Of a stretch of DNA of 64,000 bases, positions 3,613 through 52,856 are shown piece by piece. Positions within the stretch are counted from its first letter, which is position 1, and the number at the start of each line of letters is the position of its first letter. The notes beneath the pieces were generated by a model, which was not told the DNA's origin, searched no databases, and saw only the letters and a list, made by a program, of their open reading frames with translations. Origin of the DNA: an uncultured bacterium (GTDB lineage: Bacteria; Verrucomicrobiota; Kiritimatiellia; CAIKKV01; CAIYGI01). A program made the translations under genes and the position numbers. The stretch spans positions 1,784-65,783 of the forward strand of contig CAIYGI010000112.1 in NCBI GenBank assembly GCA_903925685.1, given 5' to 3'.

Positions 3613-3619
3613 CTTAGCC

Positions 3620-6316: not shown

Positions 6317-6490
6317 AGTGCTTCGCTCTCCTAAAGGCGTTGAATCATACCATCGCCAACCCGCCTGTCAAGGATCAAAACAGGATCAAAACACCATGCA
6401 GTTCTTCAGAAAACCAGAAAACCATCGGGCCTGAGACCGTGTACTTGGACTGGTAGTCCGGAACTGACGCAGAGCGGCGAACCGGAGCGA

Positions 6491-10932: not shown

Positions 10933-10953
10933 CTCGTAATTCCTCCTGTTGGT

Positions 10954-14063: not shown

Positions 14064-14100
14064 CGCGCTTCTCCTTTAGTGAATCAACCGCCCTCAAAAC

Positions 14101-14290: not shown

Positions 14291-14315
14291 TGCAGAATCA
14301 CGCCTTAATCTGAGA

Positions 14316-14415
14316 CACTTAGTCCCCACCCTTAGTCGGTTACACTTAGTCGTACCACTTAGTCGATTAAGTGTAAGCGACTAAGCGTAACCGACTAAGT
14401 GTGCCGACTAAGAGT
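14316..14415. repeat. about 100-bp imperfect palindrome built from four direct CTTAGTC(G/C) units followed by three inverted CGACTAAG units
   Basis: cacttagtcc..cttagtcgg..cttagtcg..cttagtcg [attaagtgtaag] cgactaag..cgactaag..cgactaag. It is intergenic, downstream of the beta-helix gene. Confidence 0.8.
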
Positions 14416-14421: not shown

Positions 14422-15777
14422 TTACCGGATAATGAACATCGTGCCTCTGGTCACGTATTCGTAGCAGCCCATATCCACGATGCCGGAGACGGGGTCCTTG
14501 CGCCGCTGGCCGTCCAAATCCGTCGCGCCATTCATCCAGTCCTGGTTCGTTCCGGTGTTGATGCAGGGCGACGGGGCTTGCAAATGGAAATCCTGCTTCG
14601 CAAAATTCACGAAGTTCGGCGAATTGGTCACGATGATGCCGCCAAAAACACAGTTGGCTATAGCTATATTGTTCGTGAGCAAGCAGGAGTTGGTACAAGA
14701 ACTGCTGGTGGTGGTCCCGTAGTTTACTATGTCGCTGACAGCGCCATTAACCAAATTGGAACGCATGATCGTATTCCAGATATTGAAGAAGGTTGCTGCT
14801 TGGGCACGCACATGGATGCCGGCGCCAAGTACCGCAGAGTTGCTGACGATGGTGCAATTATAAAGTCCTGCACTAGAAGCGCTATTGGCTAAGACGATCC
14901 CTCCACCCCTCTCTCCACTATAGTTATTATAAATCAGGCAATTCCGTACCTGCGCAAGGCTTGTACCCTGCTCAAAGGAAATGCCGCCGCCACCATTCCC
15001 GAAGGCGGTAGAGAGGGCACGATTGCCGCTGACAATACAGTTTTGGATAATGTTCGTCATGCCTCGTCCGCAGTGAATACCACCGCCAGGTCCTGCGGCC
15101 GAATTACCACTTATAAGACAGTTACTGATTATCAAAAGTGAGGCGCCCCCGGAGCCGTACGAGTTAAAATATATTCCCCCTCCCGACCCCGATGGCGCAC
15201 TATTACTGCTGAACGTACAGCCCTTTATGGTGTATTTCACGCCAGGGGAGGCTAAAAACGGATAACACAGCCCGCCCCCGTAAGCTCCTGCCGAAGCGTT
15301 ACCACTGACCACGCAGTTACTCAAATTCCCGGAGAAGTTTGCAATGGGCGAGATATAAATGCCGCCGCCGCTGGTGGATGACCAGCAATTGGAAACGGTA
15401 ATACCACCTATGTTGTATGGGTAAGTCACGAGCACGGGATAAATCGCAATGCCCCGATTGGTGTTGGAGCCGTCAATGCTCACGCTGGCCGGATTGCCGT
15501 TGGAACTGACCAGCGTGATCGGTTTGCTGATAGTCACCACGTTGGTGAGGGTGGCGTTGGTGGTATAATGCCCGGCGCCGATCAGCACCGTGTCGCCAGC
15601 GCTGGCCTGGTCGACCGCTTCCTGGATGTTGCTGGCCGCGCTGTCCCAGGTGGTGAAGGCCCCGCTGGGCGTCTGGCCGTTCTGCGCCACGTAATGCGTG
15701 TCGATCGCGGCCCGCACAGAGTTCGCCGCGCCACAGACCATCAGAACCACGAGAACTGACTGCACGATCGTCTTCAT
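14422..15777 (-). CDS. secreted right-handed parallel beta-helix repeat protein (pectate-lyase-fold)
   Basis: The start is at the internal Met (MKTIVQSVLVVLMVCGAANSVRA signal peptide). It has many Gly/Ser/Asn-rich PbH1-like repeats (GGGIYI.., NCxxSGNSA..). Confidence 0.7.
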   Translation of the reverse strand: MKTIVQSVLVVLMVCGAANSVRAAIDTHYVAQNGQTPSGAFTTWDSAASNIQEAVDQASAGDTVLIGAGHYTTNATLTNVVTISKPITLVSSNGNPASVSIDGSNTNRGIAIYPVLVTYPYNIGGITVSNCWSSTSGGGIYISPIANFSGNLSNCVVSGNASAGAYGGGLCYPFLASPGVKYTIKGCTFSSNSAPSGSGGGIYFNSYGSGGASLLIISNCLISGNSAAGPGGGIHCGRGMTNIIQNCIVSGNRALSTAFGNGGGGISFEQGTSLAQVRNCLIYNNYSGERGGGIVLANSASSAGLYNCTIVSNSAVLGAGIHVRAQAATFFNIWNTIMRSNLVNGAVSDIVNYGTTTSSSCTNSCLLTNNIAIANCVFGGIIVTNSPNFVNFAKQDFHLQAPSPCINTGTNQDWMNGATDLDGQRRKDPVSGIVDMGCYEYVTRGTMFIIR

Positions 15778-15894
15778 ATCATCTCCTTTGCCTAATTGTG
15801 AGCCTTTTGCACAACTGCATGGCTCTTTTCCGTTTCCGATCCCTTGCCTCATCGAATACCGAATACAGCCAAGGCCAAGCCATTCGCTCTAAGA

Positions 15895-27563: not shown

Positions 27564-30500
27564 TCATGGATGTTCTCCGTTCTCCTGCACAATCCCGATT
27601 TCCTCATCTGTCAGGCCGTAAAGCGCGTAGACCAGACGGTCAACCTCGCGGTTCGCCGCGTGAATCTGGCGGTCAAGCGCTTCCTTGTCGGGCGGGGACT
27701 TCGCGACGGCAACCTGCTTACGCAAACTCATGATCTGGTCCACCAGGTTGTGGAGGATGGCAGATGCGCCTCCTGTCGGGATGGCGATGGGCATTTGTTC
27801 GATGTATTGCTTGTTAAGCGCGATGTACCCGCCGCGAAATGGTGTACTGATCGACCGAAGGAAACGGCTCAACAAACTCGAATTGAGTATCCCGAGTAGG
27901 CAGTAGTAGTCGATGGTTGCATCTTCGCGAAGCGTAATCCCGTAGCCGCCTCCTCCACCCCCGCCACTTCCGACAAAAAAGTAGCGTCCTTCAAGGTCCG
28001 GCGCAAAGCAACTGCCCGTCGCAATGGAAGGAACAAGCAACTTGGGAAGAGGCATTTTGGTGTGGTTCTTTTTGTAAACATATCCGTACCATTGCAGCCC
28101 CAGCTTGCCTTTGTTTCGCCCAGACAACCGCGCCTTGCATTCAGTTAGATAAGCCCAAGTCAGAGGAAATCGTTGAGCGTAAGCATCTGAAGGAATCAGC
28201 GCGGACTTTCCTGATCGAGTCTCATAAGGAAAGACAAGTAGTTTGGAAACATCAGACAAGAAGTAACGCCGAATATTGAGCGAACCCTTTAGAAATGGCT
28301 TCAAATGAGCGCTCTCGAACCAATGCTCTCGGCCAGTGTGCTTTGACGAGCAAAGGACTCTGCCTTTGTCACGTTTCGCTTCCTCAAGAATGAAGACATC
28401 GTCGGCATCTGTCTGAAGCCCGACAAATAGGTCGGCGATATCGCCAAGTTTTACCGGCCACTTATTGAGGGCGTTAAAGACCTTCGCCGTCGCTCCGACC
28501 GCGAAATTCCATTCTTTCGAGGTGATAACCCGGGCTGGGATGCGTCCCTCGGCTCCTGTCGTCGTGGTCTTTCTGCCTTTGGCGCGATACAATGCCGCCG
28601 CTTCATGGACAAGCATGGGAAACACATCTGTTCTCTTTCGACCTGCGGGTTCCAATTGTTCCATGCGCCATGCGTCAAGGTCATCAACCTTTACATAATG
28701 GCACTCATCTATGCCCGCTTTATGGAGGAATAGCAGGCACGTATAAGTCGTAGCCCCTGCGAACACCTGTTGATCTCCGAAATGAACGACGTGGGCAAGG
28801 TGTCTGCCGCCGGCAATGATCCCGCGCAAGGCTTCGCCGTACTGCGCATTGAAAAACTTGTGCGGCAAAATGAAGCCCAGCCGCCCGGATTTGTTCAAGA
28901 GACTCAGCGCCTTCTCGACGAAGACAACGTAAATGTCATAGTTCCCGGCCGCTGCCGACCGGTAGAGCGACTTGTAAAGCTCGACCTCGGCTGGCGCCCA
29001 TTCCTTCATCATCTGAATGCGGATGTACGGCGGATTGCCGATGATTGCATCGAAGCCTGGTAGAACGCGCTCGCCGAGCGGCGGTTTCGGCGAAACCGCC
29101 CTACCAAACACTTCTGGAAACGCTTGCGGCCCGTCGAAAACATTGATGCGGTAGCGGTCTTCCTCCGGGAGCAAGGAAAGTTGCTGGTGCCTGTAGGCAT
29201 CCGATCCGATAAGGGAGTTTCCGCATTTGATGTTGCTGCCGAGGTCCGGCAAGGCGCGTTGGTGGAACAGTTCAAACTGCTTCGTGATACTCTCTTGGGA
29301 TTCGCCTTCCAGCACTTTCAAGAGCAGCGAAAGTTTCGTCACCTCGACGGCTTGCGCGTCGATGTCCACGCCGAAAATGTTGTTGAGAAGGATTCGCTTT
29401 CTCTCGTCGGTGGTCAGGCGGAAGCAAGGTTTCAGGTGTCGGGTGTCAGGTGTCAGACCAATACCGGCGATTTCGTATAGACAAGGGTTCCGTCCTTTCA
29501 TCCAGGATCCTGGATCATGTTCGGTGTAGTACTGCAAATGCCAGTCCAGCAGTAACTGATAGGCGCCCAGCAGGAACGAGCCCGAACCGCAGGCCGGGTC
29601 GAGAATCTTCAACTTGGCCGCCTGCTTCGGCGTCCCTACTTCCAGTAATTTGCCGACCGTGTTCTTGACGATGTAATCCACGATATAGGTCGGGGTGTAA
29701 TAGACGCCACCCGCCTTGCGGACTTCCGGCTTTTCCTCAACCTTGGCCTGATGCCCGGCGGTCAGCCGGATTACCTTGCCTAGGAAGCGCTCGTAAACCT
29801 GGCCGAGAATGTCGGCGGACAAAACGGAAAACTCGTAGGGGCTTTCCGGGTAGTAGAGATTGGCGAGAATATCGTGCAAAACCTTGTCGTCAAGGTTCAA
29901 CTTCAGGGTCAACTCGTCCGGCGCTTCGGGCCGGTCCTTTTCGCGCTGAAAATGGAACAAACCAGAGTTGTAACGATCATCAGCCTGTTGGAAGAACTCG
30001 CAGAGCCGGGGGTAGACCCGCTCGCCGTTGCGAAGCGTCATCAGCCGCCCGTAAGGTTCAATGCCACGATCTTCACAGATACGCAGGAAGATGATCCTGT
30101 CAATGGTGCACTGAACGGAGAAGTTCAGTTCCCGTTGCGACAAGTCAGGATTCCGCAAAGCGATGGTCCGGGCGAGAAGGTCACGCCAGCGTTCAATTTC
30201 CTCAAGAAATGCCTCGTCCACACTGGTAGTTCCGTGCTTGCCTTTGGCGCCTTCGGCGAACTTGTCGAACGAGCCTTTCAGCACGGCTTCGCGGGAGAAG
30301 ATCGCGGCAATCTCGTCCCACTTCTCGGCGTACTGCCCGGAAGTCAGATACATGACGCGACCGACCGCCGCCGAATCGTTCTTGCAGGGTTTGACGCGGC
30401 AGTCATAGACGGCGAACTCACCGAAGTCAGTCAAGATGCTCAAAGGGAGTTTCGCCGACCAGCCATAACGCCGGAGTTGGTAAGCCGGGTGCGGGGAGTC

Positions 30501-30797
30501 TTTGATGTTCACGGACGGCTTCTTGCATTCGACAAAAAACTTACGCGCGCCGCCGATTCGGAAGCAAGAATCCGGGGCCTCCGTCGCGCCCCCGATCTTC
30601 AAGGCTTGCTCGTGAATCACGTCCTTGTAAGCTTCGGCGTAACCTTGCTCGTTGTGTACGTCCCAGCCCAGCGCTTTGAAAAACGGATCAATGAACTCGA
30701 CCCGGATTTCCGTCTCCTTGTACTGGCCGGACTCGTACGCTTCGCGTTGTGCGTCGTAGCGTTCAAGCAGCCGTTCGATCTCTTGCGGAACAGCCAT
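27564..30797 (-). CDS. Type IIG / PglX-like bifunctional restriction-modification enzyme (N-terminal nuclease-like region + gamma-class N6-adenine DNA methyltransferase + C-terminal specificity region)
   Basis: 1077 aa from MAVPQEIERLL, with GAGG at -12 and a TATAAT about 36 nt upstream. MTase motif I is DPACGSGSFLLGAY and motif IV is IIGNPPYIRIQ. The N-terminus (EIRVEFIDPFFKALGWDV) is typical of Type IIG/IIL and BREX PglX enzymes. The gene is visibly more AT-rich than its flanks. Confidence 0.8.
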   Translation of the reverse strand: MAVPQEIERLLERYDAQREAYESGQYKETEIRVEFIDPFFKALGWDVHNEQGYAEAYKDVIHEQALKIGGATEAPDSCFRIGGARKFFVECKKPSVNIKDSPHPAYQLRRYGWSAKLPLSILTDFGEFAVYDCRVKPCKNDSAAVGRVMYLTSGQYAEKWDEIAAIFSREAVLKGSFDKFAEGAKGKHGTTSVDEAFLEEIERWRDLLARTIALRNPDLSQRELNFSVQCTIDRIIFLRICEDRGIEPYGRLMTLRNGERVYPRLCEFFQQADDRYNSGLFHFQREKDRPEAPDELTLKLNLDDKVLHDILANLYYPESPYEFSVLSADILGQVYERFLGKVIRLTAGHQAKVEEKPEVRKAGGVYYTPTYIVDYIVKNTVGKLLEVGTPKQAAKLKILDPACGSGSFLLGAYQLLLDWHLQYYTEHDPGSWMKGRNPCLYEIAGIGLTPDTRHLKPCFRLTTDERKRILLNNIFGVDIDAQAVEVTKLSLLLKVLEGESQESITKQFELFHQRALPDLGSNIKCGNSLIGSDAYRHQQLSLLPEEDRYRINVFDGPQAFPEVFGRAVSPKPPLGERVLPGFDAIIGNPPYIRIQMMKEWAPAEVELYKSLYRSAAAGNYDIYVVFVEKALSLLNKSGRLGFILPHKFFNAQYGEALRGIIAGGRHLAHVVHFGDQQVFAGATTYTCLLFLHKAGIDECHYVKVDDLDAWRMEQLEPAGRKRTDVFPMLVHEAAALYRAKGRKTTTTGAEGRIPARVITSKEWNFAVGATAKVFNALNKWPVKLGDIADLFVGLQTDADDVFILEEAKRDKGRVLCSSKHTGREHWFESAHLKPFLKGSLNIRRYFLSDVSKLLVFPYETRSGKSALIPSDAYAQRFPLTWAYLTECKARLSGRNKGKLGLQWYGYVYKKNHTKMPLPKLLVPSIATGSCFAPDLEGRYFFVGSGGGGGGGYGITLREDATIDYYCLLGILNSSLLSRFLRSISTPFRGGYIALNKQYIEQMPIAIPTGGASAILHNLVDQIMSLRKQVAVAKSPPDKEALDRQIHAANREVDRLVYALYGLTDEEIGIVQENGEHP

Positions 30798-30835
30798 TTC
30801 TACCTCGTGAATCTGAAGGGGCATTATAACGCATA

Positions 30836-32092
30836 TTACTCGGGCAACCAGCCGCGGCGGATGGCGTCTTCGATCATGGCGGAGGCGAAGGCCCAGAGCG
30901 GCGCGGCGCCTTCTTCCATGTGGCGGTTGCGCGCCCGCACCTGGGCCGCCTTGACGCCGTGATCGCGCCAGGCCACGCCGCCGGTGGCGTAGTTGTGCAT
31001 GATCGGCTGCAGGCGGTCGAGCGCCGCCGCGAAACGGGCCTCGGGCGTTTCCCGCGCCTCGAACTCGTCCCACAGCGCCCGCATGGCAACGGCCTGATCC
31101 GGCGGCAGCATCGCAAACAAACGCGCCGCCGCCCGCTGTTCGCGAGCGGGCTTCTCGACGTTGCCGCGCTCGTCGTAGCAGTAGGTATCGCCCGCGTCGA
31201 TTTCCACGATGTCGTGGACCAGCGCCATGCGGATCACCCGCCCGAGGTCGAGTTGCACCGGCGCATGCTCCGACAGCAGCGCGGCCATCAGCGCCAGGTG
31301 CCAGGAATGCTCGGCGTCGTTCTCGTAACGTGAGCCGTCGGTCAGCCAGGTCCGGCGCACAATCTGCTTGAGCTTGTCCGCCTCGGCCACGAAGGCCATC
31401 TGCCGCGCCAGCCGCGCGTTGCCCGCCGCGGGCAGTTCCGCCGGCGGTTCCTCGACGGCCACGCCGCGGGCGCGTTCGATCCAGCGCAGCAGTTCGCGCG
31501 CCACGGCGCGCTTGCTGCCCAGCGGCAAGGGCTGCGGCGGCGCGCCCGGCGCCAGCAGCACCACGCGATTCGTGTCAACATCGAAGCCGGCGTCGGGCTG
31601 GGTCACATCGTTGGCGACCATCAGATCGAGGCCCTTCTCCGCCAGCTTGCGCGCCGCCTCTTCCAGCATGTGGTCGGTCTCCGCGGCAAAACCCACGAAA
31701 GTCCGCGCGCCTTTGAGGGGCTTGATCGTCTTGAGGATGTCCGGTGTGGCCTCCAGCTCGAACGCCGGATGCGCGCCGCCTTTTTTCCGTTTCACCGCCG
31801 CGCACTGCACCGGCCGCCAGTCGGCTACCGCCGCCGCCATCACCAACGCCTCGCAGGCCGGCAGCGCCGCCCGCACGGCGGACAGCATCTCCTCCGCCGA
31901 GGTTACCCGCAGCAGCGTCACGCCACCCGGCGCAAGCAGCGCCGTGGGCCCGGAGACCAGCGTCACGGCATGGCCGCGCCGCGCCGCCTCGGCGGCCACG
32001 GCGTAGCCCATCTTGCCGGACGAGCGGTTGCTCAGAAAACGCACGGGATCCCAGAATTCACGCGTCGGCCCGGCTGTGACAAGCAAATGCAT
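30836..32092 (-). CDS. coaB: phosphopantothenate-cysteine ligase (CoaB domain) fused to a C-terminal HD-domain phosphohydrolase (YfbR-like)
   Basis: The N-terminal about 225 aa (LLVTAGPTREFWDPVRFLSNRSSGKMGYAVAAEAARRGHAVTLVSGP...FVGFAAETDH...LDLMVANDV) are collinear with the CoaB half of E. coli Dfp. The C-terminal about 190 aa carry HD motifs (ENDAEHSWHLALMA, LVHDIVEIDAGDT). No CoaC flavoprotein domain is present. Confidence 0.75.
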   Translation of the reverse strand: MHLLVTAGPTREFWDPVRFLSNRSSGKMGYAVAAEAARRGHAVTLVSGPTALLAPGGVTLLRVTSAEEMLSAVRAALPACEALVMAAAVADWRPVQCAAVKRKKGGAHPAFELEATPDILKTIKPLKGARTFVGFAAETDHMLEEAARKLAEKGLDLMVANDVTQPDAGFDVDTNRVVLLAPGAPPQPLPLGSKRAVARELLRWIERARGVAVEEPPAELPAAGNARLARQMAFVAEADKLKQIVRRTWLTDGSRYENDAEHSWHLALMAALLSEHAPVQLDLGRVIRMALVHDIVEIDAGDTYCYDERGNVEKPAREQRAAARLFAMLPPDQAVAMRALWDEFEARETPEARFAAALDRLQPIMHNYATGGVAWRDHGVKAAQVRARNRHMEEGAAPLWAFASAMIEDAIRRGWLPE

Positions 32093-36620: not shown

Positions 36621-36634
36621 CACTGAACACCCCA

Positions 36635-37390
36635 ATGAGCCGCATCCGCATACTGGTCGCCGAGGATGACCGTCATATCCGGCAGGGACTGCTCGACACG
36701 CTCGACGGCGAGGGTTACGAGGCGCTGGGCGCGGCGGATGGGGACGAGGCGCTGCGGCTCTTCCAGACGCAGCGGGCCGACCTGGTGCTGCTGGACATCA
36801 TGATGCCCGGCCGCAGCGGCTTCGATGTCTGCCGCGAAATCCGCCGCCGCGACACGCACACGCCGATTCTGATGCTGACCGCCAAGAACGAGGAGATCGA
36901 CAAGGTGCTCGGCCTCCAACTCGGCGCCGACGATTACCTCACCAAGCCCTTCGGCGTCCACGAGCTGCTGGCGCGCGTCGCGGCGCTGCTGCGCCGCTGC
37001 CGGCGCGGTGACGCGGCGGCGGCGGATGGCGGCGCCAAAGCTGACAAACTGCCGGATGTCTTAACGATGGGCGCCGCCGAAATACACCGCAAAACCTACA
37101 CGATCCGGCGCGGCCGCCAGACGGCCTCCGTCACGGCCCAGGAAATGCGGGTCATCGAAGCGCTGGCGCGCCATCCCGACGAAGTGCTCAGTCGCGACCG
37201 CCTGCTGAATGAAGCCTGGGGCGTGGACTACGCCGGCACAACGCGCACGCTCGATCAGCACATCGCGCAGTTGCGCAAAAAAATCGAGTCCGACCCCGCC
37301 GATCCGCGGATCATTGTCACCGTGCATGGCGTGGGATACATTTACCGTTTGACGACTGTTGGCCATGCGCCGCGAATGCATCCGGAGTGA
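36635..37390 (+). CDS. OmpR-family response regulator (receiver + winged helix)
   Basis: MSRIRILVAEDD...DLVLLDIMMPGRSGFDVCREIR...TPILMLTAKNEE...LGADDYLTKPF, and the C-terminal wHTH ends IIVTVHGVGYIYRL. No histidine kinase is adjacent. Its 3' end carries one copy of the 41-bp repeat that flanks the inserted TA cassette. Confidence 0.85.
   Translation: MSRIRILVAEDDRHIRQGLLDTLDGEGYEALGAADGDEALRLFQTQRADLVLLDIMMPGRSGFDVCREIRRRDTHTPILMLTAKNEEIDKVLGLQLGADDYLTKPFGVHELLARVAALLRRCRRGDAAAADGGAKADKLPDVLTMGAAEIHRKTYTIRRGRQTASVTAQEMRVIEALARHPDEVLSRDRLLNEAWGVDYAGTTRTLDQHIAQLRKKIESDPADPRIIVTVHGVGYIYRLTTVGHAPRMHPE
37307..37347. repeat. left copy of a 41-bp imperfect direct repeat flanking the AbiEii cassette
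   Basis: cggatcattgtcaccgtgcatggcgtgggatacatttaccg (encodes RIIVTVHGVGYIYR of the response regulator). Confidence 0.8.
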
Positions 37391-38157
37391 AAAACCAGCA
37401 ACCCGGCGGCCAACGCAGACGGGATGGTTTCGACGGTTCCAGTGAACAGACGACCAGCCGCATCCAGAACGCAACATCCGATGGCATCTTCCGGCAACAC
37501 GGCAACCGTGCTCTCCGCATCGTTTAACAATATCCGCCATTTCGCGCCCAGCGCAACCGGATCGGGCGCAGTTCCGTCAAAGGCCAGCGTTTCGATTTCC
37601 TCGCGCGAATAGTGGGCGGAGCGTCTGGCTTGCTCCAAAATGAAAGCCGGGGTCAACCCCGGATCCTTGCCGCACGCCGCCCAGACCAAGAAACCGAACG
37701 GCTGCAATTTTTCGTGGCAGGTGATCGCATCGATCCAATCCCGGACCTCAACACGCCCGACCAGCGCCAGCACTTTGTTGGTGGCCAAATCGAACGGGTG
37801 CAGGGCCAATCCGAAGTCAGGGTGTTCAATCAGAGGAAAAAAACGATACGCGCTGTCCTGCACCCACTGGAGCAATACCCCGTCACGTCCTCTGGTAATT
37901 TCCGCCTCCACAAAGGTGGCGTATTCCCTCATCGCATTGACCTCAAACCCGTTTCTCTCAAGGGTGATCCGGTCGGCCCTCCAAGCCGCAAGCAACGCAT
38001 CCTTGGTATCGTGGAATAAATCGACATCGTACGACCGTCGCGCCGCCGTCAGCAATTCGTTGAGTGCCGCCCCGCCGGCGACGTACTGCTCCCCGCGCGC
38101 CATGCGCTCGTTCGCCAAAGTTCTGCAAACCGCTCTCTGGTATTCGGTTAGAGACAT
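37342..38157 (-). CDS. nucleotidyltransferase toxin, AbiEii/MenT (DUF1814) family
   Basis: 271 aa. The N-terminus QYVAGGAALNELLTAARRSYDVDLFHD matches the DUF1814 GG...S.D[LI]DF motif. The gene overlaps the response-regulator 3' end convergently. Confidence 0.7.
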   Translation of the reverse strand: MSLTEYQRAVCRTLANERMARGEQYVAGGAALNELLTAARRSYDVDLFHDTKDALLAAWRADRITLERNGFEVNAMREYATFVEAEITRGRDGVLLQWVQDSAYRFFPLIEHPDFGLALHPFDLATNKVLALVGRVEVRDWIDAITCHEKLQPFGFLVWAACGKDPGLTPAFILEQARRSAHYSREEIETLAFDGTAPDPVALGAKWRILLNDAESTVAVLPEDAIGCCVLDAAGRLFTGTVETIPSALAAGLLVFHSGCIRGAWPTVVKR

Positions 38158-38417
38158 TTCATCAACTTCCTGACCGTCACATAGGTTTGCCGGTCCCCGT
38201 GCTTCTCAAGCAACTTGGCGCAACGGATCAAGTCATCGTCGGTCCGCGGAACGAAGTCCTGCCGCAGAAACCATCCGCAAAACAAACGGTTCCTCGCCCA
38301 CAATTTGCTGACTTGTTCACGCATGACCGGTGTGAGTTCCATGTCATAACCTCTTTCAAAGCCGATTCTACCTAATCGCCATTCGCTTGTCAGCATCGGA
38401 TCATTGTCACCATGCAT
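38148..38417 (-). CDS. small protein upstream of AbiEii-like toxin, putative cognate antitoxin
   Basis: An 89-aa ORF overlapping the toxin start by 10 nt. Its first seven codons (MHGDNDP) are encoded by the reverse complement of the duplicated response-regulator 3' end, so the real start may be the internal Met (MLTSEWRL...). No confident family call. Confidence 0.35.
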   Translation of the reverse strand: MHGDNDPMLTSEWRLGRIGFERGYDMELTPVMREQVSKLWARNRLFCGWFLRQDFVPRTDDDLIRCAKLLEKHGDRQTYVTVRKLMKCL

Positions 38418-38437
38418 GGCGTAGACTATATTTACCG
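38397..38437. repeat. right copy of the 41-bp imperfect direct repeat (a remnant second copy of the response-regulator 3' end)
   Basis: cggatcattgtcaccatgcatggcgtagactatatttaccg. In the response-regulator frame it reads RIIVTMHGVDYIYRKGSKR-stop, and the stop overlaps the ATG of the A2M gene. Confidence 0.8.
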
Positions 38438-38452
38438 AAAGGGGTCAAAGCG

Positions 38453-41400
38453 ATGAACACAACGAAACGTCTGGTAAAAACTCCGCGGATATATCCCATC
38501 GCGCCCGCCCTGGCGGCCTGCGCCGCGCTGTTATGCCTTTTGGCAGGCGTCCAGACGGCGGCGGCCAGCGTGGTTGAGTCGGAAACCGTGGCCGGCGATT
38601 ATGCCGGTCTCAAAGCGCAGGCCGAAGCGTATTACGCCCAACATTCCTACGCCCTGGCGCGCGATGCCTATCTGCTCGCCACCAATCTCGCTCCCTCCGC
38701 GCCCGAACGGCGTTGGACGTCCTTCCGCATCGCCGACACCCGCTGGCGCGCGCAGGCCGGCAGCAAGACCGCCGACGCCACGGCCTTCGAACAGGCGCAA
38801 CGCGAACTGGACGCCCTGGTGCGCGACGTGAGCCGGGTCGAGGACCGCGACCGCGTCTGGGCCGAGGCTCAGGAATCGCTGGGCGATTTTTCCTGGACCC
38901 GCCGCGATGGACGCGACTGGAATGCGGCCTGGCCGCGCTATGCGCAGGCGCTCGACTGGCGGGCCGGACAGACGAACAGCGCCGCCAACCGCGCGCGCTA
39001 CCTGGAAATCGTCTGGAAAGCCGCCGATAACGGACAGGACGACCCTTACTATCGTTACGGCTGGCACGGCAACGCCGTTCCGACGCCCATCCTGGCGAAC
39101 GCGGTAAAAGTGGCCCAGGACGAGACCGCCCGCGCCCATGCGCACTATTTGATTGCCATGCAGTTCATGCGCGGCAGCGACAACGACCAGCGCGCGCGGG
39201 TGCCGGATGAATTGGCAGCCGCCCAGACGCCGGGCAAAAGCTGTCCTTGGTACGACGATGCGCTCTTCCATGAAGCCGAGTGGCTGGAAAACAACGGCCG
39301 CGTCACGCTCGACGACGACGGCAACTGGCAGCAGAAACCGGACTACGGTGGCGCCGTCAAACTCTACCGGCGACTGCTCAAGGAATTCGCCAAGGGTGAG
39401 TCGCGCTATGTTGAGGAGGCACGCGCGCATCTCGACAACCTCGTCAACCCGCGGTTAGGCGTAGCCGTCGGATCCGTCTTCCTGCCAGGCTCGGAGGTCC
39501 AGTTCCAGTTCAGCAGCCGCAATCTGCCCGACGTGCGCTTCAGCCTTCAGCATGTTGCGCTGCCCGAAGCCGTACGCTTCGCGGCCGGGGACAATTCGCT
39601 GCAGGAATGGACGCGCCATATTCCAACCGGCGGCGAGATCGTCACCAACTGGAGCCGCGCCACCAACGACAAGGGCGGGCACGTCCCGTTCAACGAAACC
39701 GTGCGCCTGGAAGCTCCGCTCGCGCCCGGCGCCTACCTGCTCGAAGCCCGCTCCGGCACCAACAGCGCGCGTGACGTAATCATCGTCAGCGATATCACGC
39801 TCGTGACAAAATGCAGCGGGCGGCAGATCGTGGTCTATGCCTGCGATGCGCTTTCCGGCGTTCCCGTGCCCAACCTGGCCCTGCGCTTGTGGATGCGTTA
39901 CACGCAGGAGCGGCAGTCGCGCTTCGAGTCGCGCGACGGGGTGACCGGCGAGGACGGCTTGGCGAAGTTCGACATCAGCCGCAACCGTGACAGCCGCGAC
40001 AATACATTCCTGATCCTCGCCCAGTCCGGCGACCGCCAGGCCTTCACCTTTGCAGGGAGTTCCTGGTATTCCCCCACCCCGGACGCCTGGAAACTCTACG
40101 CGTTCACCGACCGTCCCGCCTACCGGCCGGGCGACGAAGTGAAGTGGAAACTGATTGCCAGGCAAACCTCCCAGGAGGGCGCCTTCCTCACCCCCGCCAA
40201 TCAACCACTGCACTACCGCATCCACGATCCTCGCGGGCAGACCTTGCGGGAGGCGGACTTCACCACCTCATCCTTCGGCAGTTACTCCGGCAGTTTCACG
40301 ATGGCCTCCAATCAGCCGCTCGGCGAATACACGATCGAGTTCTGGACCGGCCCCGGCCAGGCCGCGCACATCGGCCAAGCCGCGCTTTTCCGCATGGAGG
40401 AGTATAAACTTCCCGAATTCCGCGTCACCGTCCGTACACCGGAGGAAAACGGCCGGCGGCGGACTTTCCGCCTGGGCGACACCGTATCGGCCGAGATCCA
40501 GTGCGAACTCTATGCCGGCGGTCCGGTGGCCAACGCCGCCTGCGAGGTGCTGGTTCGCCAGCGCCCCTTCTTCCGTTATTGGCGGCGTCCCCATGACTTC
40601 GACTGGTACTACGCCGACATGCAGCCGAATTTCAACCGCGGCTTCAACGAGGGCGCCATCGTGAAGCGCGAAACGCTGCGCACCGACGCCCAGGGGCGCG
40701 CGCAGATCGCCTTCGACACGCCTAGCGATGGCGGGCAGGATCTGGAGTACAGCTTCGAGGCGCGCGTCACCGACGCCTCGCGCCGCGAGATCGCCGGCGC
40801 CGGAGTCGTCCGCGTCACGCGCCAGCGTTACTACGCCAACCTTGAACCCGACCACCAGCTCTACCGTCCGCAGGACCGCGTGCGCATTAGCGTCAGCGCC
40901 GGCGACGCCAACGAACAAGCCGTGCAGGTCGCGGGCGTCATCAAGGTCCAGCGCAGCCGCTGGGTCGAGGTCTGGCGCTCGCCGGAGGGACGCGAGGTTA
41001 CCGGCACAGCCCTGCGCGATGCGCGGCGCGCCTGCGCAATCTTCCCCCCCACCCCGGCGCCCGGCAAACCGGGCTGGGCGCAACTGCGCTGCGGCTTCGA
41101 ATCGGAACCCGTGCTCGAACATCCGCTCAACCTCGACAGCCAGGGCAAGGCGGAGTGTACCTTCACGCCCGAGCGCGAGGGTTACTACCGCGTCAGCTGG
41201 CGCGGCAAACAAAAGGGCGAACCGGCGGTAAGCGCCGAGTGTACCGTCTGGGTCGCCACTGAGGCCAGCGCCGACCTGGGCTACCGCAAGGGCGGATTGC
41301 AGATCGTCGCCGACCGCGACACCTTCCGCGAAGGCCAGACGGCGCCGATCATGCTATCGGCCCCCAATGGCGGCTGCCACGTGCTTTTCACCGTCGAGAC

Positions 41401-44365
41401 CGACGAACTGCTCGACGTACAGGTCGTAAAAATGGACGGCGACGTAAAACTGCTGGCGCTGCCGATCCGCGCGCGGCATGTGCCGAACGTCGTGCTCAGC
41501 GCCGCGATGGTCGCCGATCGCGCGCTGTTGACCGATGAGTTGCCCATCGTCGTGCCGCCCGTGCGCAACTTCCTCAATGTAACCGTCGCCGCCGACAAGC
41601 CGCTCTATCAGCCCCGAGAGACCGGCACATTACGTGTCACGGCGCGCGATTGGAATGACCGCCCCGTCGCGGCGGAGGTGGCGCTCTCGCTTTTCGACGA
41701 GTCGGTCACCTATATTCAATCGGAATATGCCGGCGACATCCGGCAGTTCTTCTATGGCGACAAGCGCCCGCACAGCGTGCAAACCAGCAGCAGTTTTCAG
41801 CAACGGCCCTATCTCAAACTGGTGCGCGAGGAAGGGCGGCTGATAGACGTCCGCGAGCAGCGTGCGCACGCCGAACGGCAGTTCAATGATGGAGGAGTTG
41901 GCAACGAGCGAGAGCGGCGCGAAATCGACTCCGACGGTCCAATCAATGGCCGATTGGTTATGCGAGACAAGAAGAATGCGGTGAAAGGCGGGGAAAACTC
42001 AGCCGTCATTGTACGCTCTGACTTCCGCGCCACGGTACTGTGGCAGCCGGCGGTGCTGACCGATGCCAATGGCGAGGCCGTGGTCCCGATCGCCTTCCCC
42101 GACTCGCTGACTGCCTGGCGCGCCAGCGCCCGTGCCGTCACCAGCGGTCAGCAGTTTGGCAACACCAACCTGACCCTGCACACCAAGCTGCCGCTGGTCG
42201 CGCGTCTCCAGACGCCGCGCTTTTTGGTGGCGGGCGACGAGGTGACCATCTCCGCCGTCTTCAACAACCATACCGCTTTGCCCATCAAGGTGCTTCCCGA
42301 ACTCAAGGCCGCCGGCATCACCCTGCGCGGCTGGCTGCGCGGCGGCGAACTGCAGCGCGAGGCGCCGGACGCCGTCGATGTGCCGCCCGAAGGCGAGGCG
42401 CGCGTGGACTGGCGCGCCGCCGCCGAAACTACCGGCGAGGCGCGCCTGGAACTGCGCGCCCGCGCCGGCTCTTACAGCGACGGCATGAGCGCGTCATGTC
42501 CGGTGCTGGAGCATGGCGTTGAAACCACCATCACCCGCTCGGGCCGCGCACTGGGCGATGACGTGCGCCTGCGCTTCGATCTGCCCAAGGCCCGCCGTCC
42601 GAATTCCGCCACGCTGACGGTGCAGGTCACGCCGAGTCTCGCCGTGACGATGCTCGATGCGCTGCCCTATCTGTTGGACTACCCCTATGGCTGCGTCGAA
42701 CAGACCATGAGCCGCTTTCTGCCGGCGGTGATCGTCCGGAAAACGCTCGCCGATCTGGGGCTCAAGCCCGAGGCCGTGGCCGACCGCATCTTTGGCGGCA
42801 TCGAGGCGGCAACCGCGGACAAGACCCATCCGCAAGGCGCGCAAAACATGCAGCGGCTGTCGGCCATCGTCAGCGGCGGACTGACCCGTCTCTACGACTT
42901 CCAGCACGCCGATGGCGCGTGGGCCTGGTGGAAGGAAGGCGACAGCGACCGCTTCATGACCGCCTACGTGGTGTATGGTCTGGCGCTCGCCCGTCAGTCG
43001 GGTGTTGAGGTCAAACCCGGCGTCGCCGAACGCGGCGCGGCCTGGCTGGATAAGGAACTGGTGACGGAGGAGGCCAACCCGGACATGCAGGCATGGATGC
43101 TGCAAGCCCTGGGCGAATGGCAGTGCGCGAACGGCGCCAAAGAACCCAGCGCCTTCCAGAACAAGGCCCTGGATAACGTCTGGACCCAGCGCGACCGTCT
43201 CAACGGCTGCACCCGCGCCCTGGCGGCGCTGGCCGCCAAACGCTTCGGCCGCGCCGATCAGGCCCGCGTGTATGTGGATAATCTGCGCAACGGCATTCAG
43301 GTGGACGACCGGCCCGACCAGTCCATCGTACAAACAGGTGTGCCGCAGAGCAGCACCGGGCAAAGCTACGCCGTCACCGCCACCGCCCACTGGGGCGAGG
43401 ACGGCATAGCCTGGCGCTGGTCCGACGGCGGCGTCGAAGCCACCGCCAACGCCCTGCGCGCCTTGCTGGCGGTGGATCCAAAGCATCCGCTCGTCGCGCC
43501 GACCGTGCAGTGGCTCGTCAAAAACCGCCGCGGTGCGCAGTGGAGCAACACCCGCGACACGGCGCTGGTTGTGCTGGCGCTGAACGATTACCTGCGCGTC
43601 AGCGGCGAACTTGGCGCCAGCGAGTCCTACGAGCTGCGCGTCAACGGCCAGCGCGTGGCCGTGGAACAGATCACGCCCGAGACCGTGCTCAGCGCGCCGG
43701 GCCGTTTCGAGATCGCCCCCGGACTGCTGCGCGACGGCGCGAACGAGGTGCGCATCATGCGCACGGATGCGACCAATGGCGCGCTCTACGTCTCGGTCTG
43801 CGCCAAATTCTTCAGTCTGGAGGAGCCGATCCCGCCGGCGGCCAGCGAGCTTTTCCTGCAGCGCCACTATTACCGCTTCGTCGGCCATCCCAGTCTGCTT
43901 AAGGGCTGGGTCTACGAACGCCAACCGCTGCCCGACCAGGGCGCTGTAACGAGCGGCGAGCGGATTGAAACCGCGCTGACGCTGGAGGTCAAGAATAACG
44001 CCGAGTACCTGATCCTGGAGGATCTCAAGCCCGCCGGACTGGAAGCCGTGGCGCTGCGCAGCGGCGAGGCGCTTGACGCGCGCGAACTGACCAGGGACGG
44101 CGCCGCGCGGGCGCCCGACCGGCGCGAGGCCGGCGACTATACCGGCCGCACCCGCCGCGTGTATCAGGAACTGCGCGACCGTAAGCTGGCGATCTTCATC
44201 GACAAACTCCCGCAGGGCATCTGGGAATTAAGATGCGAAATGCGCGCCGAGACCCCCGGCCGCTTCCACGGCCTGCCCGCACTGGGCCAGGCCATGTATG
44301 TGCCGGAAATCCGCGCCCACACCGCGGAGCAGCGCATTACCGTGGAAGACCGCAGCGAGAAATAG
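38453..44365 (+). CDS. bacterial alpha-2-macroglobulin family protein (thioester-containing)
   Basis: 1970 aa with a signal peptide. It has the MG-domain architecture and the thioester motif YPYGCVEQTMSRF (CxEQ). The start was chosen at MNTTKRL (38453). Confidence 0.85.
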   Translation: MNTTKRLVKTPRIYPIAPALAACAALLCLLAGVQTAAASVVESETVAGDYAGLKAQAEAYYAQHSYALARDAYLLATNLAPSAPERRWTSFRIADTRWRAQAGSKTADATAFEQAQRELDALVRDVSRVEDRDRVWAEAQESLGDFSWTRRDGRDWNAAWPRYAQALDWRAGQTNSAANRARYLEIVWKAADNGQDDPYYRYGWHGNAVPTPILANAVKVAQDETARAHAHYLIAMQFMRGSDNDQRARVPDELAAAQTPGKSCPWYDDALFHEAEWLENNGRVTLDDDGNWQQKPDYGGAVKLYRRLLKEFAKGESRYVEEARAHLDNLVNPRLGVAVGSVFLPGSEVQFQFSSRNLPDVRFSLQHVALPEAVRFAAGDNSLQEWTRHIPTGGEIVTNWSRATNDKGGHVPFNETVRLEAPLAPGAYLLEARSGTNSARDVIIVSDITLVTKCSGRQIVVYACDALSGVPVPNLALRLWMRYTQERQSRFESRDGVTGEDGLAKFDISRNRDSRDNTFLILAQSGDRQAFTFAGSSWYSPTPDAWKLYAFTDRPAYRPGDEVKWKLIARQTSQEGAFLTPANQPLHYRIHDPRGQTLREADFTTSSFGSYSGSFTMASNQPLGEYTIEFWTGPGQAAHIGQAALFRMEEYKLPEFRVTVRTPEENGRRRTFRLGDTVSAEIQCELYAGGPVANAACEVLVRQRPFFRYWRRPHDFDWYYADMQPNFNRGFNEGAIVKRETLRTDAQGRAQIAFDTPSDGGQDLEYSFEARVTDASRREIAGAGVVRVTRQRYYANLEPDHQLYRPQDRVRISVSAGDANEQAVQVAGVIKVQRSRWVEVWRSPEGREVTGTALRDARRACAIFPPTPAPGKPGWAQLRCGFESEPVLEHPLNLDSQGKAECTFTPEREGYYRVSWRGKQKGEPAVSAECTVWVATEASADLGYRKGGLQIVADRDTFREGQTAPIMLSAPNGGCHVLFTVETDELLDVQVVKMDGDVKLLALPIRARHVPNVVLSAAMVADRALLTDELPIVVPPVRNFLNVTVAADKPLYQPRETGTLRVTARDWNDRPVAAEVALSLFDESVTYIQSEYAGDIRQFFYGDKRPHSVQTSSSFQQRPYLKLVREEGRLIDVREQRAHAERQFNDGGVGNERERREIDSDGPINGRLVMRDKKNAVKGGENSAVIVRSDFRATVLWQPAVLTDANGEAVVPIAFPDSLTAWRASARAVTSGQQFGNTNLTLHTKLPLVARLQTPRFLVAGDEVTISAVFNNHTALPIKVLPELKAAGITLRGWLRGGELQREAPDAVDVPPEGEARVDWRAAAETTGEARLELRARAGSYSDGMSASCPVLEHGVETTITRSGRALGDDVRLRFDLPKARRPNSATLTVQVTPSLAVTMLDALPYLLDYPYGCVEQTMSRFLPAVIVRKTLADLGLKPEAVADRIFGGIEAATADKTHPQGAQNMQRLSAIVSGGLTRLYDFQHADGAWAWWKEGDSDRFMTAYVVYGLALARQSGVEVKPGVAERGAAWLDKELVTEEANPDMQAWMLQALGEWQCANGAKEPSAFQNKALDNVWTQRDRLNGCTRALAALAAKRFGRADQARVYVDNLRNGIQVDDRPDQSIVQTGVPQSSTGQSYAVTATAHWGEDGIAWRWSDGGVEATANALRALLAVDPKHPLVAPTVQWLVKNRRGAQWSNTRDTALVVLALNDYLRVSGELGASESYELRVNGQRVAVEQITPETVLSAPGRFEIAPGLLRDGANEVRIMRTDATNGALYVSVCAKFFSLEEPIPPAASELFLQRHYYRFVGHPSLLKGWVYERQPLPDQGAVTSGERIETALTLEVKNNAEYLILEDLKPAGLEAVALRSGEALDARELTRDGAARAPDRREAGDYTGRTRRVYQELRDRKLAIFIDKLPQGIWELRCEMRAETPGRFHGLPALGQAMYVPEIRAHTAEQRITVEDRSEK

Positions 44366-44570
44366 ATTAAAACATGGAGCTTCGTCGAATATCGTTCCGA
44401 CGTTGCATCAGCGAACATTTCGCCTTACGCCCACGCGGCTCGCGAGAACGCTCGCCCTCCCAAAAAACGTCATCGAAGCTATTCGGGAGGGCGATCGTCC
44501 TCGCGAGCCGTGTGGGAAGCGGATGAAAAGGCGGTCCACGAATGGTCCCAGCCTCCGTAGGCGAGAATTG

Positions 44571-44744
44571 GGCGCATCTGCGAATCGGTATCTGCAGGTG
44601 GAAAGCAACGCAGAAGGCGCAGCGCGGATGTGGAGGGACGACCTCCGTGTCGTCCGTGAATCAGCCGGAGTGAGGAACGGACGGGACGGAGCCCGTCCCT
44701 CCAGAAGACAAGGCGCATCCGCAACGATTCGCAGATGCGCCCCG
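44571..44744 (+). repeat. copy 2 of the repeated structured intergenic element, here bounded by 18-bp terminal inverted repeats
   Basis: The left end is GGGCGCATCTGCGAATCG at 44571-44588. The right end is CGATTCGCAGATGCGCCC. Internal hairpins are GACGAC-CTCCGT-GTCGTC and GGGACGG-AGC-CCGTCCC. The core is about 90 % identical to copy 1 at 14101..14290(-). It sits in the A2M-pirin intergenic region. Confidence 0.7.
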
Positions 44745-44802
44745 AGGATTTGGGCACAGAATGGGGGCTTGACTGTTCGGGCAGGCGTTTGGGAAACTTT
44801 AT

Positions 44803-45677
44803 CCATGAGCGCATATCGTTCCATCAAAACCATTCTTGAGCGACGCCCAACCATGGAAGGCGCCGGGGTACGCCTCAAACGCGTATTCAGCAACAACGAA
44901 GTCGAGCTGCTGGACCCGTTTCTGTTGCTCGACGATTTCGGATCCGACAATCCAGCCGACTACGTCGCCGGCTTTCCCTGGCATCCGCATCGTGGCATCG
45001 AAACCGTGACCTACATGCTGGCCGGCGAGGTCGAGCATGGGGACAGCATGGGCAACAAGGGGGTGATCCGTTCCGGCGACATCCAGTGGATGACCGCAGG
45101 CAGCGGAATTATTCACCAGGAAATGCCCCAGGCCTACAAAGGCACGGCGCGCGGTTTCCAGCTCTGGGTCAACCTGCCGGCCAGTGACAAGATGATGGAT
45201 CCGCGCTACCGGGGTGTGACGAGCGACACCGTCGTCGAAGTCAGTCCGCAACCCGGCGTGAAGGTCAAGGTCGTTGCCGGCGCGCTGAACGGCGTCAAGG
45301 GACCGGTGCGCGATGTGATCGCCGATCCGGAGTATTTTGACGTCTCGCTACAGGCAAACACCGCCTTCGAACACGACACGCCGGCCGGGCATACAGTCTT
45401 CGCCTACGTCATCGGCGGCAGCGGCTGGCTGACGCGCGACAAGCAGGATGAATTGACCGACGGCCAACTCGCCCTGATGAACGACGGAGGAAAGATCAAG
45501 GCCACCGCGGGCGGCAACGGCATGCGCTTCCTGCTGGTCTCCGGCAAACCGTTAAAAGAACCCGTCGCGTGGTACGGTCCCATCGTCATGAACACCCAGG
45601 CCGAACTGGACACCGCGTTCGAGGAATTTAACAACGGGACCTTCATCAAGCATCGGCGTATACCCAATGCCAAATAG
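44803..45677 (+). CDS. pirin family protein
   Basis: The start is at the internal ATG 44803 (MSAYRSIKTILERRP...). HPHRGIETVTYML..GE..H.D..G is the pirin cupin motif. Confidence 0.85.
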
Positions 45678-46239
45678 ATGCGAATGGTGCGGCGCCGACC
45701 CTCTGTATATCGAGTATCACGACCGCGAATGGGGCCAGCCGGTTCACGATGACCGCCGCCTTTTTGAGTTTTTGATCCTGGAAGGCGCACAGGCGGGGCT
45801 GAGTTGGCTGACCATCCTCAGGAAACGCGAGAACTATCGCAAGGCCTTCCACGGCTTCGATCCGCAAAAGGTCGCCGCTTATTCGTCGCGGGATGTTCAG
45901 CGACTGCTGTCCGATCCCGGCATTGTGCGCAACCGCCTGAAGATCGGCTCCGCGATCGAAAATGCGCGGGGAGTGCTGAAGATCGTGGAACAATTTGGCT
46001 CTTTAGATGCCTTTATCTGGCGCTATGTCGAATTCAAGCCCATACAGAACGCCTGGCGCTCATTGGCCGAACTGCCCGCCGCGACCGACCTGTCCGACAA
46101 GATGAGCAAAGATCTGAAGCAACGCGGCTTCAACTTCGTCGGTTCGAAAATCTGCTATTCCTTCATGCAAGCCGTCGGCATGGTCAACGACCATGTGATT
46201 GGCTGCTTCAGGCATCGTGAAGTTGGGTACTGTATGTGA
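45667..46239 (+). CDS. tag: DNA-3-methyladenine glycosylase I
   Basis: 190 aa: RCEWCGADPLYIEYHDREWG, FEFLILEGAQAGLSW and C-terminal Cys/His, matching Tag. Confidence 0.9.
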   Translation: MPNRCEWCGADPLYIEYHDREWGQPVHDDRRLFEFLILEGAQAGLSWLTILRKRENYRKAFHGFDPQKVAAYSSRDVQRLLSDPGIVRNRLKIGSAIENARGVLKIVEQFGSLDAFIWRYVEFKPIQNAWRSLAELPAATDLSDKMSKDLKQRGFNFVGSKICYSFMQAVGMVNDHVIGCFRHREVGYCM

Positions 46240-51944: not shown

Positions 51945-51979
51945 CCACCCTCCACCCTCCACCATCCACCATCAACCTT
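51945..51979 (+). repeat. heptamer tandem array A (CCACCCT x2, CCACCAT x2, CAACCTT)
   Basis: Immediately downstream of the comF stop and about 50 nt upstream of the zinc-ribbon gene. Confidence 0.85.
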
Positions 51980-51983
51980 CTTC

Positions 51984-52714: not shown

Positions 52715-52751
52715 CGGGTGGATGGTTGAAGGTGGAAGGTGGATGGTGGTA
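52715..52751 (-). repeat. heptamer tandem array B (reverse orientation: CCACCAT CCACCTT CCACCTT CAACCAT CCACCC), ending about 10 nt upstream of the comF start codon
   Basis: Plus strand gggtggatggttgaaggtggaaggtggatggtggtag. It is an inverted partner of array A. Confidence 0.85.
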
Positions 52752-52792
52752 GTTCGTCATGTCCGCAATCAGTGCTGCCAGCTTACGGTCAT

Positions 52793-52856
52793 CTTCCACC
52801 CTCCACCCTCCACCTTCCACCCTCCACCTTCCACCCTTCACCTTCCACCCTTCACA
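52793..52856 (+). repeat. heptamer tandem array C, about nine copies of CCACCYT (CCACCCT/CCACCTT/TCACCTT)
   Basis: ccaccctccaccctccaccttccaccctccaccttccacccttcaccttccacccttcac, between the mtnP stop and the comF promoter. Confidence 0.85.

Follow-up and report, generated by a model that had tools for sequence, protein, structure and literature searches.

A 173-bp palindromic element upstream of a Kiritimatiellia pirin gene: a probable non-autonomous transposon carrying a hairpin that recurs across phyla

Is a repeated, hairpin-rich sequence that lies between genes a regulatory RNA or a small piece of mobile DNA? This question is raised by a locus in a 64,000-nucleotide stretch (hereafter the window) of contig CAIYGI010000112.1 from an uncultured bacterium of the Kiritimatiellia, where such a sequence precedes a pirin gene (copy A) and recurs upstream of a gene for a DUF4838 protein (copy B); a first-pass annotation had offered both explanations. 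We find it likely that the 173 bp at 44570-44742 form a non-autonomous transposon of the miniature inverted-repeat transposable element (MITE) type, and that copy B and a copy on a metagenome contig are single units of the same family. We favor this reading because the locus has perfect terminal inverted repeats, an 8-bp repeat abutting them and no coding capacity, because a third copy lies in an unrelated context, and because the window holds ~390 nt more than a closely related genome (L139) at the same site, all of which support the MITE half of the first-pass annotation.

Anatomy of the repeat

In a window-wide repeat search, the longest inverted pair joined 14149-14244 to 44570-44665 (96 nt, 89% complementary), while the remaining inverted pairs were either no longer than 42 nt or merely 71-76% complementary. 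The core of about 95 nt and 90% identity that had been described is thus real and its consensus correct, but the second copy lies at 14244-14149 on the minus strand, the position originally given (14290-14190) being ~45 nt too high. Three-way alignment with the metagenome copy (L128, contig Ga0247841_10096079) revealed that the unit truly common to the copies is 87 nt long, at 44570-44656(+) and 14244-14158(-). It starts with GGGCGCATCTGCGAATCG and ends in a 26-nt hairpin of the form TGGAGGG-N5-CTCCGT-N5'-CCG, and homology among the three copies has sharp limits at both ends, the 3' limit falling directly after the hairpin. The copy A locus, which had been taken for one copy plus extra sequence, is actually made of two related units in tail-to-tail inversion, 173 bp overall: a long unit (44570-44656, plus strand) and a shorter one (44742-44678, minus strand), both of which begin with the same 18 nt and carry a hairpin of one kind. 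The 26-nt motif TGGAGGGACGNNCTCCGTNNCGTCCG occurs three times in the window (44631-44656(+), 44678-44703(-) and 14158-14183(-)) vs. zero expected in shuffled sequences.

The left terminal inverted repeat of the 173-bp element (GGGCGCATCTGCGAATCG, 44570-44587) begins with GG and is the perfect reverse complement of the right one (44725-44742; CGATTCGCAGATGCGCCC on the plus strand), confirming the 18-bp repeats noticed in the first pass; with one substitution, the same 18-mer also opens copy B and the L128 copy. Directly abutting these termini are the 8-bp direct repeats CGAGAATT (44562-44569) and CGAGGATT (44743-44750), a candidate target-site duplication with 7/8 identical positions, for which the calculated chance of a match at fixed boundaries is ~4e-4. 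Inward from the left terminus lies a lineage-specific 5' module of 43 nt (44588-44630), common to copy B and L128, followed by a GGAG-tagged hairpin (TGGAGGGACGACCTCCGTGTCGTCCG, 44631-44656) with a 7-bp stem and a CTCCGT loop. A 21-nt spacer (44657-44677), within the 6-52 nt usual for tail-to-tail pairs of this hairpin family, separates its tail from that of the second hairpin (TGGAGGGACGGGCTCCGTCCCGTCCG, 44678-44703, minus strand), beyond which is the 21-nt interior of the short unit (44704-44724, minus strand). Both hairpins match the motif exactly, and the stem of the second differs from that of the first by compensatory changes (AC/GT to GG/CC). Folding of 44566-44750 yielded one long predicted hairpin (-105.2 kcal/mol; z = -9.2 relative to shuffles), in which part of the short-unit interior pairs with 44624-44630. 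Apart from an overlapping chance open reading frame (ORF) of 43 amino acids (aa) the element has no coding capacity, and as a non-coding sequence below ~300 bp it is of the size expected of a MITE.

Copy B is a single 87-nt unit (14158-14244, minus strand) consisting of the left terminus, the 5' module and the hairpin. It shares ~91% identity with 44570-44656 and 98% with the L128 copy, and its flanks are unrelated to those of either. The palindrome that follows it (14111-14156, minus strand; GAAGC-tgca-CTTGCAAAACC / GGTTTTGCAAG-c-GCTTC) is succeeded by a U-rich run (14095-14110). Its arms are similar to the ends (GAGGCTCTTGCAAAAC, GAGGCGCTTGCAGAAC) of palindromic elements that carry the hairpin in other phyla. 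This TTGCAAAAC palindrome may be an empty relative of those cross-phylum elements, a terminator, or a part of the unit.

Both copies are intergenic and co-oriented with the downstream gene, as had been stated. Copy A follows an alpha-2-macroglobulin gene (38387-44365) and precedes the pirin gene (ATG at 44805), all in the same direction; copy B lies between a 476-aa ORF (14422-15852) and the DUF4838 gene (12096-14063), both on the minus strand. The distance of 40-60 nt to the downstream start proposed for the two copies is corrected here. From the end of the copy A locus to the pirin start we measured 62 nt, or 110 nt if translation starts at ATG 44853 as in a database protein (P0001), and the core of copy B ends 94 nt before the DUF4838 ATG, with the extra hairpin ending ~47 nt and the U-rich run ~31 nt before it. 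The window is otherwise ordinary chromosomal DNA that encodes YidC, PlsY, IspD/F, AspRS, CysRS and PanB.

Copies elsewhere, empty sites and the case for a regulatory RNA

A scan of metagenome contigs for the terminus followed by the hairpin returned 13 matches, 12 of which were chance matches in coding DNA. The third copy, on L128, is an 87-nt unit with two differences from copy B, and its neighbors are a GH38 mannosidase gene and a small antitoxin-like ORF. In viral contigs the same pattern gave 0 matches, and blastn against the PLSDB plasmids gave none either, whether with the element or with a related composite element. The dispersal seen so far comprises three units at two loci within the 64-kb window, plus one copy on a metagenome contig, in three unrelated gene contexts.

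Comparison with relatives revealed where the element is absent. L139 (GCA_025360745.1, contig JANYBP010000033.1) carries DNA 92-95% identical to the window over 36632-46224, with the same gene order; however, its macroglobulin-pirin spacer measures 49 nt vs. ~440 nt in the window, the element is missing, and homology restarts at CTTGACT just upstream of the pirin start. Read from the two sequences, this difference qualifies as an insertion polymorphism between related genomes. The window pirin with identical upstream DNA was also present on short contigs of independent assemblies, which end inside the palindromes. Among more distant homologs, pirins of 70-73% identity adjoin unrelated upstream genes directly, without a leader; DUF4838 proteins of 81% identity start 4 nt past an unrelated upstream gene, without the element; and downstream of a GH38 gene 85% identical to the L128 neighbor a kinase gene begins after 11 nt, again without the element. 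The gene upstream of DUF4838 is non-homologous between the window and the 81% relative, so that this site is no clean empty-site test. The absence of the element near these relatives of pirin, DUF4838 and GH38 indicates that it is tied to no gene family.

These comparisons bear on the other half of the first-pass annotation, namely that the core of 87-95 nt acts in the transcript of the downstream gene as a cis-regulatory RNA, leader or attenuator, or is a small RNA gene. The long unit does lie between co-directional genes and in their orientation in 3/3 contexts, but such agreement has a probability of 0.25 by chance once the first orientation is fixed, and the downstream genes (pirin, DUF4838 and the small antitoxin-like ORF) are unrelated to one another. 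Conserved placement is also lacking, since L139 is without the element at the same site and any leader is missing from homologs whose proteins are 70-85% identical. A regulatory role could further draw on the extremely stable RNA hairpin that copy A can form, and on the strong hairpin and U-rich run that follow copy B and end 31 nt before the DUF4838 start. The 5' module, however, has no conserved stem: of the 10-bp stem predicted for copy A, two pairs are broken in copy B without compensation, and L128, having the same bases as copy B at both broken pairs, presumably lost these pairs likewise (compensatory changes outside the hairpin were assessed over four units). Copy B alone folds no better than its shuffles (z = +0.56).

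Searches for known RNA features were consistent with this picture. A scan of the whole window with Rfam 15 at gathering scores gave no match and hence no family for the core, relaxed E-values in both intergenic regions returned only spurious microRNA-like matches to the long palindromes, and 14 loci with related elements yielded nothing relevant to the element. Simple scans of both intergenic regions found no sigma-70-like promoters, and no terminators within either element, the single terminator-like site being on the minus strand inside the pirin ORF. Since the hairpin family as a whole is also without orientation bias (see below), we consider the regulatory-RNA explanation scarcely credible and advise against labeling the conserved core a riboswitch, leader or small RNA in annotations. 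It would rather represent mobile DNA, which differs even in closely related genomes and breaks short-read assemblies. A stable read-through RNA hairpin that stabilizes the upstream 3' end or insulates pirin might still arise as a by-product of the insertion.

The GGAG-tagged hairpin across phyla

We scanned one genome per species with the pattern GGAGGGACGNNCTCCGTNNCGTCC and obtained at least 120 hairpin-carrying stretches; the statistics below refer to the matches listed. The 5' module is absent from these genome loci save for one 16-nt match. This match (GGGCGCATCTGCGAAT, 3618-3633 of locus L009 from a rumen Kiritimatiellae metagenome-assembled genome (MAG)) equals the first 16 nt of the window element terminus, is intergenic and has no hairpin after it; it may be a relic terminus or due to chance (E ~0.01 in ~0.85 Mb). 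In contrast to the module, the hairpin was present in Verrucomicrobiota, Kiritimatiellia, Lentisphaerota, Planctomycetota (including Brocadiaceae), Desulfobacterota (Smithellaceae, Syntrophaceae), Fermentibacteria and unclassified MAGs, as well as in 29 IMG/VR contigs classed as viral (L144, L165 and L171 among them), so that phages or prophages may carry hairpin elements between hosts. Three related IMG/VR contigs have the motif at the same two positions.

From neighboring copies with other stems, the general motif reads T-GGAG-GG-N5-CTCCGT-N5'-CC-G. The tag was fixed as GGAG by the scan pattern, and all 233 instances carry it; the loop is CTCCGT in 200 of the 233, and a T precedes the tag in 76%. 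Over at least five phyla the head TGGAG, the loop CTCCGT and the closing GG/CC are constant, with free variation at the five inner pairs of the stem. In 94 distinct sequences picked by head and loop alone, 91.6% of positions in the 7-bp stem were paired (66.7% in shuffles), with 142 double changes and a covariation score of 0.567 vs. 0.141 in shuffles; this sample is partly biased, as the seed pattern fixed 5 of the 7 stem pairs and the signal comes from the two free pairs together with independently found neighbors.

Quantification of the arrangement of the hairpins revealed 82 inverted pairs (44 tail-to-tail and 38 head-to-head) vs. 10 direct ones. By a rough gene call, 54% of the hairpins are intergenic, with 29 at convergent and 14 at divergent gene pairs; between co-directional genes 20 have the same and 24 the opposite orientation, and inside ORFs the counts are 42 and 46. 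Stem mismatches of the G:T and A:C types are equally common (10 vs. 7), without strand asymmetry. Because of the inverted pairs, the even orientation and the symmetric mismatches, the hairpin family behaves as a strand-symmetric DNA element, unlike an oriented RNA signal. One large contig had 3 exact matches in 888 kb. Some hairpins lie in frame within genes: three are in a 1005-aa ValRS-like ORF (L084, ~2600-2720) and two, arranged tail to tail, are in a 613-aa exosortase-like ORF (L056, 6617-6673), where they add short peptides such as GGTTSVSS or DDTEVVPP. Hairpin elements mark fast-changing intergenic regions and also insert in frame in essential genes such as the ValRS-like gene. The ORFs between distant hairpin pairs included no transposase; one was nucleotidyltransferase-like and the others were large hairpin-containing ORFs.

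This anatomy is that of repetitive extragenic palindromic (REP) sequences. Like the GTAG superfamily of REP, BIME and REPIN elements (Nunvar 2010, PMC2817692; Di Nocera 2013, PMC3733652), the GGAG unit is 26 nt long and opens with a 5' tag of 4 unpaired nt, followed by a GC-rich stem of 7 bp with its loop and by a short tail. Inverted pairs prevail as in REPs (PMC3733652), often with unequal stems; the units are enriched in intergenic regions, with more hairpins at convergent than at divergent gene pairs; mismatches are free of strand asymmetry; and some copies lie in frame in ORFs, paralleling the REPs of Opitutus terrae and the Rickettsia palindromic elements (PMC3733652). Some REP pairs are likewise embedded in longer palindromes. 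The GGAG hairpins might, by this likeness, be the active part of the element, moved as single-stranded DNA by a HUH tyrosine transposase of the kind associated with REPs (RAYT), with the outer repeats incidental or part of the doublet.

Several differences make this explanation unlikely. The tag is GGAG, not GTAG or GTGG, which places the hairpin outside the catalogued variants (PMC3733652); it is not listed in the GTAG/CGTC catalogue of Di Nocera 2013 with its supplements (PMC3733652), and the catalogued Opitutus and Rhodopirellula families differ from it in sequence. Head and loop stay the same from phylum to phylum, whereas most GTAG families in the catalogue are specific to a species or clade (PMC3733652). 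A tblastn search of all loci with ten RAYT/TIRYT proteins found a single RAYT (L056, 5079-5507), which is flanked by classic GTAGGGCAAGC REPs and not by GGAG hairpins. We noticed that this region (4990-5610) is a textbook REP-RAYT unit, the RAYT being 34% identical to that of Opitutus terrae with GTAGGGCAAGC...GCTTGCC REPs on both sides, and that the same genome also holds GGAG hairpins. IS200/IS605 and RAYT elements move as single strands through HUH enzymes, without an 8-bp duplication or 18-bp terminal inverted repeats. The window copy has both, and neither is expected as a product of RAYT/IS200-type movement.

The constancy of head, loop and closing pairs over at least five phyla, with free inner stem pairs, would also be explained if the hairpins were kept by a conserved host protein that binds them, with the MITE as one vehicle of the motif. 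The occurrence of the same hairpin inside MITE backbones with unrelated termini and in IMG/VR contigs fits this idea, but no protein partner was identified, and copies inside essential ORFs together with the low number of hairpins (3 exact matches in 888 kb) fit a selfish element better; we consider a host-selected motif decidedly improbable. This judgment covers its more specific forms, in which the hairpin would bind gyrase or IHF or stabilize mRNA as in REP/BIME elements, or in which the loop ACGGAG of the opposite-strand RNA would serve as an ANGGAN hexaloop resembling CsrA/Rsm sites. With orientation bias absent, an RNA site dependent on one orientation is unlikely, and the even orientation of the hairpins speaks against the CsrA-type loop.

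The hairpin was thus found in several settings: inside MITE backbones with unrelated termini (GGGCGCATCTGCG..., GGTAGTGTCC..., GGCTCTTGCAAAAC...), alone, inside ORFs and in IMG/VR contigs. We tentatively raise the possibility, itself rather doubtful, that T-GGAG-GG-N5-CTCCGT-N5'-CC-G is an uncatalogued cross-phylum REP-like superfamily with constant head and loop and variable stem, which would imply one conserved hairpin-reading protein. A literature search with the motif strings returned unrelated eukaryotic sequences only, and a search for REPIN/RAYT in phyla of the Planctomycetes-Verrucomicrobia-Chlamydiae (PVC) group returned nothing specific. Such a reader, if it exists, could be a new kind of mobilizing enzyme, or a host factor through which hairpin-carrying MITEs become tolerated or competent for transposition. 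This is why it matters that a single hairpin of constant head and loop reappears in no fewer than five phyla and in IMG/VR contigs, within MITEs of differing ends. If one protein reads it, REP-like elements, which are regarded as moving through HUH enzymes in single-stranded form, would be connected with MITEs that have inverted repeats and target duplications and are moved by DDE enzymes. It would also offer a handle on how small repeats spread horizontally among bacteria of the PVC group and their neighbors in anoxic habitats.

A possible mobilizing enzyme and neighboring repeats

Returning to the MITE interpretation of the 173-bp element, the structure of its ends suggests that a DDE transposase would act in trans, cutting at the terminal inverted repeats and inserting with an 8-bp staggered cut. 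The enzyme would most likely be an ISL3-family transposase encoded elsewhere in the genome, since the element has GG ends and an 8-bp duplication and since related termini (GGCTCTTGCAAAAC, GGCGCTTGCAGAAC) look like ISL3 repeats (GGCTCTTCG...). Inverted repeats starting GGCTCTTCG and 8-bp direct repeats are described both for ISL3 insertion sequences (PMC6305408 Table 3) and for an ISL3-derived MITE (PMC11448079). The window element resembles ISL3-derived MITEs such as that of Microcystis aeruginosa (GGCTCTTCG termini; PMC11448079) and ISL3 insertion sequences such as ISArsp7 (PMC6305408) in its GG-starting inverted repeats and 8-bp direct repeats, and the former also in its small size and lack of a gene. 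It is unlike the ISL3 MITEs described in those two papers (PMC11448079, PMC6305408) in its interior of conserved REP-like hairpin pairs.

Related elements elsewhere are closer to ISL3 at their ends. Termini of the GGCTCTTGCAAAAC type share their first 7 bases with the ISL3 inverted-repeat start; they were found at L110, L039, L099 and L102, where the 8-bp flanks match at 6-7 of 8 positions wherever the boundary can be set at GG (at L110, TGTGCAGA/TCTGCAGA). Many hairpin pairs lie within longer palindromic elements that have termini of their own. At L068 (382-482), a 100-bp element with inverted repeats that start with GG contains two hairpins placed tail to tail and has a perfect duplication of 8 bp (CATCGAAA). 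Hairpin-carrying palindromic elements of 120-180 bp, with termini like GAGGCTCTTGCAAAAC or GAGGCGCTTGCAGAAC, occur in Verrucomicrobiota, Lentisphaerota, Kiritimatiellia and Smithellaceae; L110, L039, L099 and L102 belong to this set. The terminus of the window element itself, GGGCGCATCTGCGAATCG, is only loosely similar to repeats of the GGCTCTT... type, and for this element we regard the ISL3 link as a lead and not as an established result. If the link is correct, an autonomous partner should have ends like GGGCGCATCTGCGAATCG or GGCKCTTGCARAAC around a protein with a DDE_Tnp_ISL3 domain (PF01610). On the MITE interpretation, the empty site should read ...GTAGGCGAGRATTTGGGCAC..., with a single-copy CGAGRATT target. 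The embedded hairpins would be a separate conserved module, needed as single-stranded DNA structures for mobility or maintenance, or REP-like elements that settle in palindromes.

A number of observations weigh against the MITE interpretation or its ISL3 extension. The window encodes no transposase of any kind, and none with matching ends; in ~1.27 Mb of the loci compared there was likewise no transposase with matching ends and no convincing full-length insertion sequence with GG(C/G)(T/G)C(T/G)T termini. The ISL3 link is built on a short terminal similarity plus the length of the duplication, and the element terminus GGGCGCATCTGCGAATCG aligns with GGCGCTTGCAGAAC solely with two 1-nt gaps. The flanking duplication is imperfect (7/8). 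No more than four units are known, of which three belong to the window and the fourth to L128. The ~390 nt absent from L139 hold at least two elements, this one plus a neighboring palindrome, so that no clean single-element empty site was seen. Finally, copy B and L128 have one terminus each and yet a common 3' boundary, which a simple truncated MITE fails to explain; the description of copy B in the first pass as a partly decayed MITE is plausible, but a 3' boundary shared with the metagenome copy is not what independent decay would leave.

Correia, ERIC and RUP elements, the classical bacterial MITEs, are palindromic, 100-180 bp long, intergenic and strain-variable, and can form long RNA hairpins in read-through transcripts. 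Correia elements duplicate TA and not 8 bp, and promoter, IHF and RNase III functions have been documented for them. The window element is like those of Neisseria (Correia), ERIC and RUP in being an intergenic palindrome, in its presence or absence between relatives and in its potential to form a long RNA hairpin, with no sequence similarity. Rickettsia palindromic elements lie in frame in ORFs, as do members of the GGAG family (L084, L056); the window copies are intergenic and have no sequence relationship to them.

Just upstream of copy A, at 44385-44520, we observed a second palindromic element with 42-nt arms (44430-44471 / 44475-44516) following the pattern GGGAGGGCGA.CGT.CTCGCGAGCCG.GTGGG. 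The left portion of this element (ATCGTTCCGAC..CATTTCGCCTTACGCCCACGCGGC) is similar to a palindrome of ~110 nt in L139 (3668-3800), which lies upstream of the macroglobulin gene and is missing from the matching window site. Judged by these positions, the 44385-44520 palindrome looks like another mobile family that occupies differing sites in the window and L139. Short palindromic repeat arrays also differ between the two genomes at several spacers. For example, L139 has a palindromic array of AGTCAGA/AGCCAGA 7-mers (10860-10960) between the pirin and adenine glycosylase genes, which overlap in the window.

Other repeats and genes were seen on the way. Between the 476-aa ORF and copy B, at 14315-14415, 4+4 inverted copies of a 13-14-nt unit with CGACTAAGTG form a long hairpin; this decamer has 13 matches in the window vs. 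~2 expected, 8 of them within 14315-14415. Inverted arrays of the 7-nt CCACC(C/T)T and its complement lie at 52716-52850 and 51945-51980, in the spacer of a ComF-like and a phosphorylase gene. A Smithellaceae MAG (L049) carries a group II intron at 4872-6812, recognized by Rfam through D1-D4 and domain V-VI, ~2 kb from a hairpin-carrying palindromic element. At 27564-31073 the window encodes a 1169-aa type IIG restriction-modification enzyme with Eco57I/MmeI-like methylase domains, and the patch of lower G+C at this gene (0.54 vs. ~0.64) suggests that it was acquired horizontally.

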